The notes beneath the pieces are model-generated. The model searched no databases, was not told where the DNA came from, and was given only the letters and a program-made list of their open reading frames with translations. A DNA stretch of 64,000 nucleotides, from NCBI RefSeq assembly GCF_041886205.1, contig NZ_CP169029.1; one strand, written 5' to 3'. The translations under genes were made by a program, and so were the position numbers. The number at the start of each line of letters is the position of its first letter. The first letter of the stretch is position 1. This document shows, piece by piece, positions 5,357-6,552 of the stretch. The stretch comes from Escherichia coli (GTDB lineage: Bacteria; Pseudomonadota; Gammaproteobacteria; Enterobacterales; Enterobacteriaceae).

Positions 5357-5387
5357 TGAATAAACCCATCCAAAGATGGGTTTATTC
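5357..5387. terminator. Bidirectional rho-independent terminator between convergent prtN-like gene and the candidate toxin gene
   Basis: Inverted repeat gaataaacccatc / gatgggtttattc with 4-nt loop, A/T-rich flanks. Confidence 0.6.
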
Positions 5388-5852
5388 ATAATGTTGAAGA
5401 GCAGCGAGTATCAGTTTTTTATGCCGTTTAACCATAGTTTTAGATATCTCAACTGCACATCGAACTTGTCTCATACAATGATCTGTAATGCGACCTTTTA
5501 GCACGTCACCATATTGGATGGCTATTTTCTCTTTAATAATTTCAAGATCGAAAGCAGCATGAGCCTCAATGCAATTAACAAATGAGTCCCATTTAAGAAA
5601 ATCATGGTCCTCTCTATTAATTTCGACCTGACAAGCCATAAGATCATTGTTTCTCTTAATAAATTCATTTATATCTGAATTTATTAGAAGAACTAAAAGA
5701 GGTTCACAGCAAACAACCACCATATATTTTACTTTAGGTGGGGTCGTAAAATCACAATGAAGATACAATACATCACCGGGTGATATACCTCTTTCACGAC
5801 TAAAATTAGCCTTAAAATCAGGAGGGAAACAATCACCCAGCATAAGTATCAA
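5382..5852 (-). CDS. Unknown 153-156 aa protein, downstream partner of the Panacea-domain gene; candidate toxin/effector
   Basis: ORF overlaps upstream gene stop by 4 nt (TTG start) or starts at ATG 5843 five nt after it; no recognisable domain. Confidence 0.6.
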   Translation of the reverse strand: MILMLGDCFPPDFKANFSRERGISPGDVLYLHCDFTTPPKVKYMVVVCCEPLLVLLINSDINEFIKRNNDLMACQVEINREDHDFLKWDSFVNCIEAHAAFDLEIIKEKIAIQYGDVLKGRITDHCMRQVRCAVEISKTMVKRHKKLILAALQHYE

Positions 5853-6376
5853 TATCCGTTCTTCAGATAATCCAGTATTAATTTGCTATTTTTTAGCTGT
5901 GCAACTATCGATTCCAAAGACATCTCACCATTGTGATCTGCCTGTTCCCATGCCGCGTCATGGCTCATGGTTCTGATAGCTTCAAAGGACATGTTTCCAA
6001 GCATCGCGATAGACTTATCAATACACTCTAAATCTGAGTCACTAAAAAAGTCTTCATCAGCTTCACGGCTCGGCACAATCGTCATACCTGATACAGAAAA
6101 TGCTTTTCGCACAGAATCGACATCACAACCATTAGGAATGTAACGTCCATCTCCACGAGCAATTTTTATAATATCGTATGTGTTGCTTGCTACAGGCCCA
6201 TCCTTCATAGCGTTATAGTGATCGCCCGTTATGAGGCGTCCAAAACTTTCAAGGTGAAACCTGTCAGCATAATAAAGAATTTTTCCGACATGATAGATAT
6301 CTGGGATCGGTGCTTTAGAGGCGACGTACAGAATGGCCTCTAAAGCCTTTTCTGAATCAAACCTTACATTTAGCAT
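5849..6376 (-). CDS. Panacea (DUF4065)-like antitoxin-domain protein
   Basis: N-terminal ...KALEAILYVASK...KILYYADRFHL...GRLITGDHYNAMKDGPVASNTY matches the conserved Panacea/DUF4065 pattern; AAGGG SD 7 nt before ATG 6376; ORF-track start 6430 has poor spacing. Confidence 0.6.
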   Translation of the reverse strand: MLNVRFDSEKALEAILYVASKAPIPDIYHVGKILYYADRFHLESFGRLITGDHYNAMKDGPVASNTYDIIKIARGDGRYIPNGCDVDSVRKAFSVSGMTIVPSREADEDFFSDSDLECIDKSIAMLGNMSFEAIRTMSHDAAWEQADHNGEMSLESIVAQLKNSKLILDYLKNGY

Positions 6377-6552
6377 CAATACACCCTTCATCCAAACAAC
6401 ATCGTCAAGCTCTGGCAAATGCAACCGCATCCGCCTTCTACAATCTTAAAGTCTTCACCTACGCTAGGTCAATTGAAGTGATGAGCAAATGATGCTTTCT
6501 AAGAAGAACAGGTTCCCAATAGGCTCCCACAAAGTGTATAACTACTTGTTTT

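Follow-up and report, generated by a model that had tools for sequence, protein, structure and literature searches.

A Panacea-domain gene and a partner of predicted MazF fold form a probable PanAT cluster T5 toxin-antitoxin cassette in a dusA-integrated prophage of Escherichia coli

Introduction

Kurata et al. (2022, PMC8832971) surveyed the gene neighbourhoods of DUF4065/Panacea proteins and defined 88 clusters of associated toxins, which together with their Panacea antitoxins make up the PanAT toxin-antitoxin (TA) systems. In the accessible part of their Dataset S1, cluster T5 is listed with the antitoxin gene ahead of the toxin gene and the description "hypothetical protein", and its members include Photorhabdus heterorhabditis WP_054475897.1; the T5 representative is matched there by HHpred at 99.5% to EndoA/MazF and at 98% to CcdB. 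The MazF-like PanTs of P. moraviensis (cluster T6) and B. ruminantium (cluster T25) were validated as TAs and were assayed among the PanTs that inhibit translation, and the T5 pair that was tested, from Chryseobacterium bovis, was classed as "MazF" in Table S1 of the supporting information, its toxin being toxic in E. coli (PMC8832971). The E. coli entries found in the same part of Dataset S1 were two, belonging to clusters T1 and T3 and not to T5. Here we describe two adjacent minus-strand genes, which we designated panA and panT, in a 64,000-nucleotide stretch of E. coli DNA (contig NZ_CP169029.1 of RefSeq assembly GCF_041886205.1; this whole stretch is referred to as the window, and positions are those of the window unless another sequence is named). 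By sequence similarity PanT is a member of cluster T5, and we consider it probable that panAT is a type II PanAT cassette, with a T5 MazF-like RNase toxin neutralised by direct binding of PanA, carried as cargo at the end of a dusA-integrated lambdoid prophage that lies nearest the attachment site (att).

Identification of the two proteins

A profile search of the upstream protein, PanA, against Pfam gave a significant match to PF13274 SocA_Panacea (i-E 9.1e-20; residues 50-161, model positions 3-112 of 113), and a search of PHROGs matched phrog_1281 (1.6e-20). An initial annotation, made from the letters of the window, had seen a Panacea/DUF4065 pattern in this protein; that recognition was right, but its restriction to the N-terminal region was not, as the match covers most of the protein. 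PanA relatives have a conserved C-terminal helix in common (residues ~154-173 of the 175-residue form), and the PanA proteins co-diverge with the toxins. Against the NCBIfam SocA equivalog NF047745 PanA scored 17.4 bits, far under the cut-off of 190, and we rejected membership in SocAB on this score.

The P. heterorhabditis protein WP_054475897.1 falls in a 90% cluster whose representative, P0033, shares 53% identity with PanT (E 9e-51), and it is on this similarity that we place PanT in cluster T5. The initial annotation had proposed an undescribed module with a new toxin, a claim that does not survive, since the PanT family was already catalogued in 2022 as a PanA-associated cluster. What does hold of that proposal is the TA candidacy: the pair is a Panacea-headed two-gene cassette with TA architecture, carried as cargo at a prophage end. 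The accessible portion of the supplementary text of NetFlax (Ernits 2023) did not contain the relevant accessions.

Predicted fold and putative active site of PanT

The product of panT had no significant match in Pfam, NCBIfam or PADLOC. The top match in a sequence profile search of the PDB was an augmin subunit (E 0.38), and PHROGs gave only a non-significant match to phrog_29007 (E 0.009). The family, whose members are of ~150 residues, is sizeable, and 711 representatives were matched at E <= 1e-3, 221 of them at E <= 1e-10. An AlphaFold2 model of PanT, built with 25 relatives in the alignment, was confident, with a predicted local distance difference test (pLDDT) score of 91.1 and a predicted TM-score (pTM) of 0.84. 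A Foldseek search of the PDB with this model placed MazF-mt3 and MazF-mt1 on top, and a structure search of viral models returned an "Endoribonuclease" and a "PemK-like protein" at the top. Structure comparison gave scores of 8.2 to CcdB and of 7.2-4.8 to the type III toxins CptN, AbiQ and ToxN; we rejected a type III ToxN-like system (ToxIN/AbiQ/CptIN) on the low Z-scores and because the upstream partner is a protein. As modelled, the fold of PanT is unambiguously a CcdB/MazF SH3-like barrel. The description of the partner as unrecognisable in the initial annotation is therefore correct for sequence but not for structure, where the AlphaFold2 model shows the MazF/PemK fold.

Conservation computed across 164 members of the PanT family was concentrated in a few positions, namely K39 and S87 (both 100%), C91 (99%), N55 and L83 (98%), K37 and G23 (92%) and S56 (91%), and all of these residues are present in PanT of the window. 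The catalytic residues of MazF are an Arg (R25 in B. subtilis, R29 in E. coli) and a Thr (T48 in B. subtilis, T52 in E. coli). When we compared the 164-member family with four MazF/Kid sequences by hhalign, the alignment spanned 103 columns and matched the order of secondary structures, with a weak E-value of 0.019. Within this weak alignment K39 faces MazF Arg24/25 (S. aureus R24, B. subtilis R25), N55 (with S56) faces Thr47/48, and S87 faces Ser72/73, the conserved Ser of the "DS" strand. A narrower PanT family alignment compared with four MazF sequences aligned the C-terminus alone (E 0.067), and a search of MazF sequences with a hidden Markov model of the PanT family (hmmsearch) aligned the HVEI...DS segment alone. 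By profile-profile comparison the C-terminal D-x-x-M-x-x-V-x-x-A-x-x-S helix of PanT aligns with the corresponding helix of EndoA and S. aureus MazF.

Gene boundaries, coupling and selection

The open reading frame of panA reaches an ATG at 6430 (193 residues; 5849..6430, minus strand), and RefSeq starts the gene at a TTG at 6418 (189 residues). The N-termini of PanA relatives line up in the alignment at the motif MLNVRF/MLKIRF, so the start is most likely the ATG at 6376, which has a Shine-Dalgarno-like GAAGGG 7 nt upstream. This gives panA, the Panacea-domain antitoxin gene, the coordinates 5849..6376 (minus strand), with a probable product of 175 residues that begins MLNVRFDSEK and a TGA stop at 5851-5849. 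Public annotations use at least five starts for PanA, giving proteins of 175, 184, 189, 191 and 193 residues.

The gene for the putative MazF/PemK-fold toxin, panT, occupies 5382..5843 (minus strand) and encodes a 153-residue protein, from an ATG at 5843 that lies 5 nt past the panA stop to a TAA at 5384-5382. An alternative TTG start (5852-5850) overlaps the panA stop and would give 156 residues (5382..5852). Because of this overlap and the short distance to the ATG, the translational coupling of two minus-strand frames described in the initial annotation is accurate, as are the positions it gave for the TGA, the TTG and the ATG. E. coli ACN002 has identical DNA here, and its RefSeq entries are named "Panacea domain-containing protein" (WP_223156504.1) and "hypothetical protein" (WP_000900143.1, 153 residues, from the ATG).

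Against a cassette ~75-78% identical at the DNA level, the ratio of nonsynonymous to synonymous substitution rates (dN/dS) was 0.03 for panA, a value that is only qualitative because dS was saturated, and 0.13 for panT. Both genes are under purifying selection, and from the low dN/dS and the 711 representative panT relatives both are more than chance open reading frames.

Conserved pairing and a predicted PanA:PanT complex

A PF13274 gene was directly upstream of, and co-oriented with, the toxin gene in all three distant relatives that were compared (32-42% identity). In IMG/VR prophage loci a PanA homologue was directly upstream in 24 of the 24 loci that had upstream sequence; nine further loci were cut at a contig end and stand outside this count. 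In total, 27/27 relatives for which the upstream region was available, drawn from several genera and metagenomes, had PanA directly upstream, with gaps of 4-42 nt. When PanA and PanT were modelled by AlphaFold2 as a single chain, PanA-(GGGGS)6-PanT, from 12 paired sequences, pTM was 0.81, the linker was disordered and both halves were confident. Such a pTM is hard to reach unless the two halves are confidently placed relative to each other, and the model thus suggests a direct PanA:PanT complex.

Location at the end of a dusA prophage

In ACN002 a ~44-kb lambdoid prophage carries panAT as the final cargo of one end, and at the opposite end its tyrosine integrase adjoins a restored dusA. The cargo slot is bordered on its inner side by a PrtN-family gene (5049..5348, plus strand), the last gene of the prophage early-left operon and convergent with panT. 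Upstream of panAT and on the same strand lies the displaced 5' remnant of the bacterial dusA (6553..6675, minus strand; present in the open reading frame listing and a pseudogene in RefSeq), which has 35 native codons (6675-6571) followed by RMYRF and a stop at 6553. The uninterrupted dusA of other E. coli genomes aligns to the window only from 6572 onward, which places the prophage/host junction (att) at 6571/6572. With PrtN ending at 5348 and host dusA sequence ending at 6572, the pair does lie between the last phage gene and the island junction, as first annotated.

Elements specific for dusA insert in the 5' end of the gene, for which they bring a replacement, and the original fragment ends up at the distal junction (Farrugia et al. 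2015, PMC4482086). The remnant in the window (6575-6678) and the replacement 5' end that the phage carries next to its integrase (L002 44845-44949) shared 83% identity. Of 5,426 complete E. coli genomes, 45 had the full 1.7-kb stretch from the PrtN gene through panT and panA to the dusA remnant. In sister prophages PrtN and the junction are retained and the genes between them are others, e.g., a 179-residue protein and a YafO-family toxin in PEC240, and two hypothetical proteins in the O157:H7 sister prophage. We rejected the idea of partner swapping in place, with the upstream proteins of the slot also being Panacea proteins, as the 179-residue protein of PEC240 and a 177-residue protein of O157:H7 were dissimilar by BLASTP. 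The GC content was 34.8% for panT (22.9% at third codon positions) and 41.3% for panA, against 47.7% for adjacent phage genes; this low GC and the variability of the slot indicate that panAT is acquired cargo. The slot between att and PrtN looks like a small cargo hotspot of dusA prophages, possibly worth mining.

The PanA plus T5-toxin cassette also occurs elsewhere. In one predicted phage (L032, 3451-4459) it is within a cluster of myovirus tail genes, flanked by those for tail completion and the tape measure, and in another (L039, 3480-4456) it is between an Ant anti-repressor gene and an endolysin gene. From these differing positions we conclude that the cassette moves as a self-contained cargo unit; a housekeeping phage function for PanT was rejected on the same grounds, the positions being unrelated and the phage types different. 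The cassette was not found in deposited phage genomes, that collection giving only end matches of 34-49 nt. In a public collection of contigs, the exact PanT sequence was on at least 1,000 labelled E. coli, and a close variant was on ~400 labelled Salmonella.

Inward of the cassette, the early-left operon encodes a 338-residue protein of unknown function (3451-4467) and a 3'-5' exonuclease (4464-5039). In ACN002 the region upstream of these two genes has homologues of yfdP, yfdQ and yfdR together with an e14-like immunity region (ymfK/ymfT), which indicates that the prophage is a mosaic of CPS-53-like and e14-like modules. On the host side of the junction, a gene of the DUF2713 family (yjbM-like, 7038-8024) has a GC content of 34%, as low as that of panT, where the window average is 49.8%.

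Signals for transcription

A hairpin at 5355..5390, a candidate intrinsic terminator listed without a strand, has a perfect 16-bp stem and a folding energy of -23 kcal/mol (z = -7.4), and none of 200 shuffles folded as well. It lies between panT (minus strand) and the convergent PrtN gene (plus strand) and is common to both, with the panT stop codon in its 5' arm. The initial annotation had called this a strong bidirectional terminator; strong it is as a hairpin, but our scan called a terminator on the minus strand only, with a moderate U-tract.

For panAT itself we noted a candidate sigma-70-like promoter immediately ahead of panA, at 6443..6472 (minus strand; TTGACC, an 18-nt spacer and TAAGAT), which is a consensus match only. 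The sole promoter-like match for dusA was at 6876-6848, and promoter-like matches in the region were no commoner than in shuffles (5 versus 6.8 +/- 2.1). It had been suggested initially that the displaced dusA promoter lies about 250 bp upstream of the pair. This was imprecise, as 245 nt is the distance from the start codon of the dusA remnant (6675) to the ATG at 6430. Nothing resembling a terminator was found from the dusA promoter region to panA, and read-through from the displaced promoter is thus possible. In the excised phage the panAT leader would sit downstream of the phage-borne dusA-like 5' end, so that a dusA-type promoter would lie upstream of the cassette whether the phage is integrated or excised. 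An Rfam search found no RNA element; its one sub-threshold match, to the Acinetobacter sRNA (small RNA) AbsR28 at 6954-7007 (minus strand), reached 23.6 bits against a gathering score of 50 and lies on the hairpin terminator after the DUF2713 (yjbM) gene, and it is almost certainly a chance match to that terminator.

Discussion

Taken as a type II system, panAT would work as follows. PanT would be a sequence-specific endoribonuclease that arrests translation by RNA cleavage, with a variant active site in which the invariant Lys39 stands in for the MazF Arg and Asn55-Ser56 for the Thr, and in which Ser87 is the counterpart of the conserved Ser of the "DS" strand. PanA (175 residues), a stand-alone Panacea domain with the conserved C-terminal helix, would hold PanT inactive by binding it directly. 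The two genes are coupled in translation and would have the shared hairpin as their terminator. The toxicity of PanT and its neutralisation by PanA would then have a biological role, either in keeping other phages out or in stabilising the prophage.

Several observations count against this mechanism. Pfam gave nothing even at E <= 10 for PanT or any of the 25 relatives, PF02452 PemK_toxin included, and searches of NCBIfam and of PDB sequences gave nothing that ties PanT to PemK/MazF. The profile comparisons with MazF are statistically weak (E 0.019-0.067), and so is the alignment through which the residues are mapped; by that mapping the catalytic Arg and Thr are not kept as such, the aligned positions having the chemically similar Lys and Asn-Ser. 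PanA is without a recognisable DNA-binding domain that would account for autoregulation. In the work of Kurata et al. (PMC8832971) the C. bovis PanA was itself toxic in E. coli, for which reason that T5 pair was not validated as a TA, and of the 25 PanTs tested in E. coli 8 showed no toxicity, among them that of an E. coli prophage pair of a different cluster (T1). In PADLOC-DB v2, PanA matched 0 families and PanT matched only PDC-M02B (E 0.017), and there was no match to a defence system.

The replaced catalytic residues and the non-toxic PanTs just mentioned are also what would favour a pair that is not a working TA in E. coli, with PanT a non-toxic MazF-fold protein (an altered RNA-binding protein or a regulator) and PanA having another role. 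We think this quite unlikely, given that the T5 homologue of C. bovis is toxic and that the putative active-site positions are near-invariant across the 164 relatives, which together with strict pairing with PanA and low dN/dS argues for a conserved, hazardous activity that needs its partner. Very improbable, to our minds, is that PanT uses the fold shared by CcdB and MazF as a CcdB-like gyrase poison or as some other non-RNase effector.

The remaining explanations concern what the cassette is for. Its main job could be abortive infection or superinfection exclusion encoded by the prophage, the Panacea domain sensing a cue from an invading phage and releasing the MazF-like RNase, a role that can go together with the PanAT mechanism. 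In favour are the location in a variable cargo slot at the end of the prophage, which in sister prophages holds a YafO-toxin pair or other small genes, and the finding of the same cassette as an inserted cargo gene pair ("moron") in unrelated phages; Ernits et al. [quoted passage not shown] Set against this are the lack of any matching PADLOC defence model and a literature search (DUF4065 and phage, since 2022) that found no defence phenotype for a pair of a DUF4065 protein and a MazF-like protein, and we regard such a main function as possible but doubtful. We also considered an addiction or stabilisation module that would act by post-segregational killing after loss or excision of the prophage and have no defence function. 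The architecture is that of a classical type II TA, the cassette adjoins the att junction and would be lost with the element, and it is strictly kept as a pair, there being no orphan toxin copies in the 5,426 E. coli genomes; yet temperate phages that can excise gain little by killing cured cells, and in other phages the same cassette is mid-genome, so that this role seems unlikely to us. A more far-reaching proposal is that T5 PanAT is an unrecognised abortive-infection system of prophages, with a non-canonical active site based on Lys, Panacea as the phage sensor, expression from the dusA promoter only once integrated (just inside attL), and this cassette as one allele of an undescribed defence-cargo hotspot of dusA prophages. 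We hold that whole to be improbable.

On the PanAT reading that we prefer, the analysis offers a function-level annotation for WP_000900143.1, which is still "hypothetical" in RefSeq, and a native E. coli representative of a PanAT cluster that so far has been without a validated pair. With this pair one could conveniently study the way in which a MazF-fold toxin is neutralised by a stand-alone Panacea domain, and the trigger that sets the toxin free. These results leave our understanding of TA biology as it was.

Comparison with described systems

In its integration architecture the prophage of the window is the same as the dusA-specific elements of Farrugia et al. (2015, PMC4482086), whose account covers the integrase and att system; the panAT cargo is not described there. 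The antitoxin domain of the pair, PF13274, is common to it and to SocAB, the type VI TA of Caulobacter whose SocA is the namesake of the Pfam family. The partner in the window, however, is predicted to have a MazF fold and is not SocB, and PanAT pairs neutralise by direct binding and not as a ClpXP adaptor. Compared with MazEF, Kis-Kid and PemIK (PF02452), PanT has no PF02452 match, and it has Lys and Asn-Ser at the positions aligned with the catalytic Arg and Thr; the model also shows an N-terminal helix additional to the MazF fold, and its helical extension at the C-terminus, of ~30 residues, is longer than in MazF. The antitoxins differ as well, that of the window being a Panacea protein whereas MazE, Kis and PemI are of the AbrB/SpoVT type.

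Nearer are the proven TA pairs of P. moraviensis (T6) and B. ruminantium (T25), which like the window pair combine a Panacea antitoxin with a toxin of MazF/PemK fold, and of which the P. moraviensis pair forms a complex. Their toxins are unlike PanT in belonging to other sequence clusters, and both are marked "NotPhage" in Dataset S1.

Nearest of all are the T5 PanATs of P. heterorhabditis (WP_054475899.1/WP_054475897.1) and C. bovis (WP_076782182.1/WP_076782181.1), which consist of the same two families in the same order as the window pair. As in the window, their genes are separated by a tiny gap or overlap, their PanA is without an extra N-terminal domain, and their toxins are of ~150-156 residues with no CDD or Pfam match and a MazF/EndoA/PemK fold. 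The T5 cluster holds no pair validated as a TA, toxin and PanA of C. bovis both being toxic. What sets our locus apart from the T5 set of Kurata et al. is its occurrence in E. coli and Salmonella and its location in a dusA-integrated lambdoid prophage, neither of which is in the accessible part of their dataset. By this comparison the cassette belongs to the PanAT T5 "MazF" group already published, as a member from E. coli and Salmonella that is carried by dusA prophages, and it is not a new kind of system.

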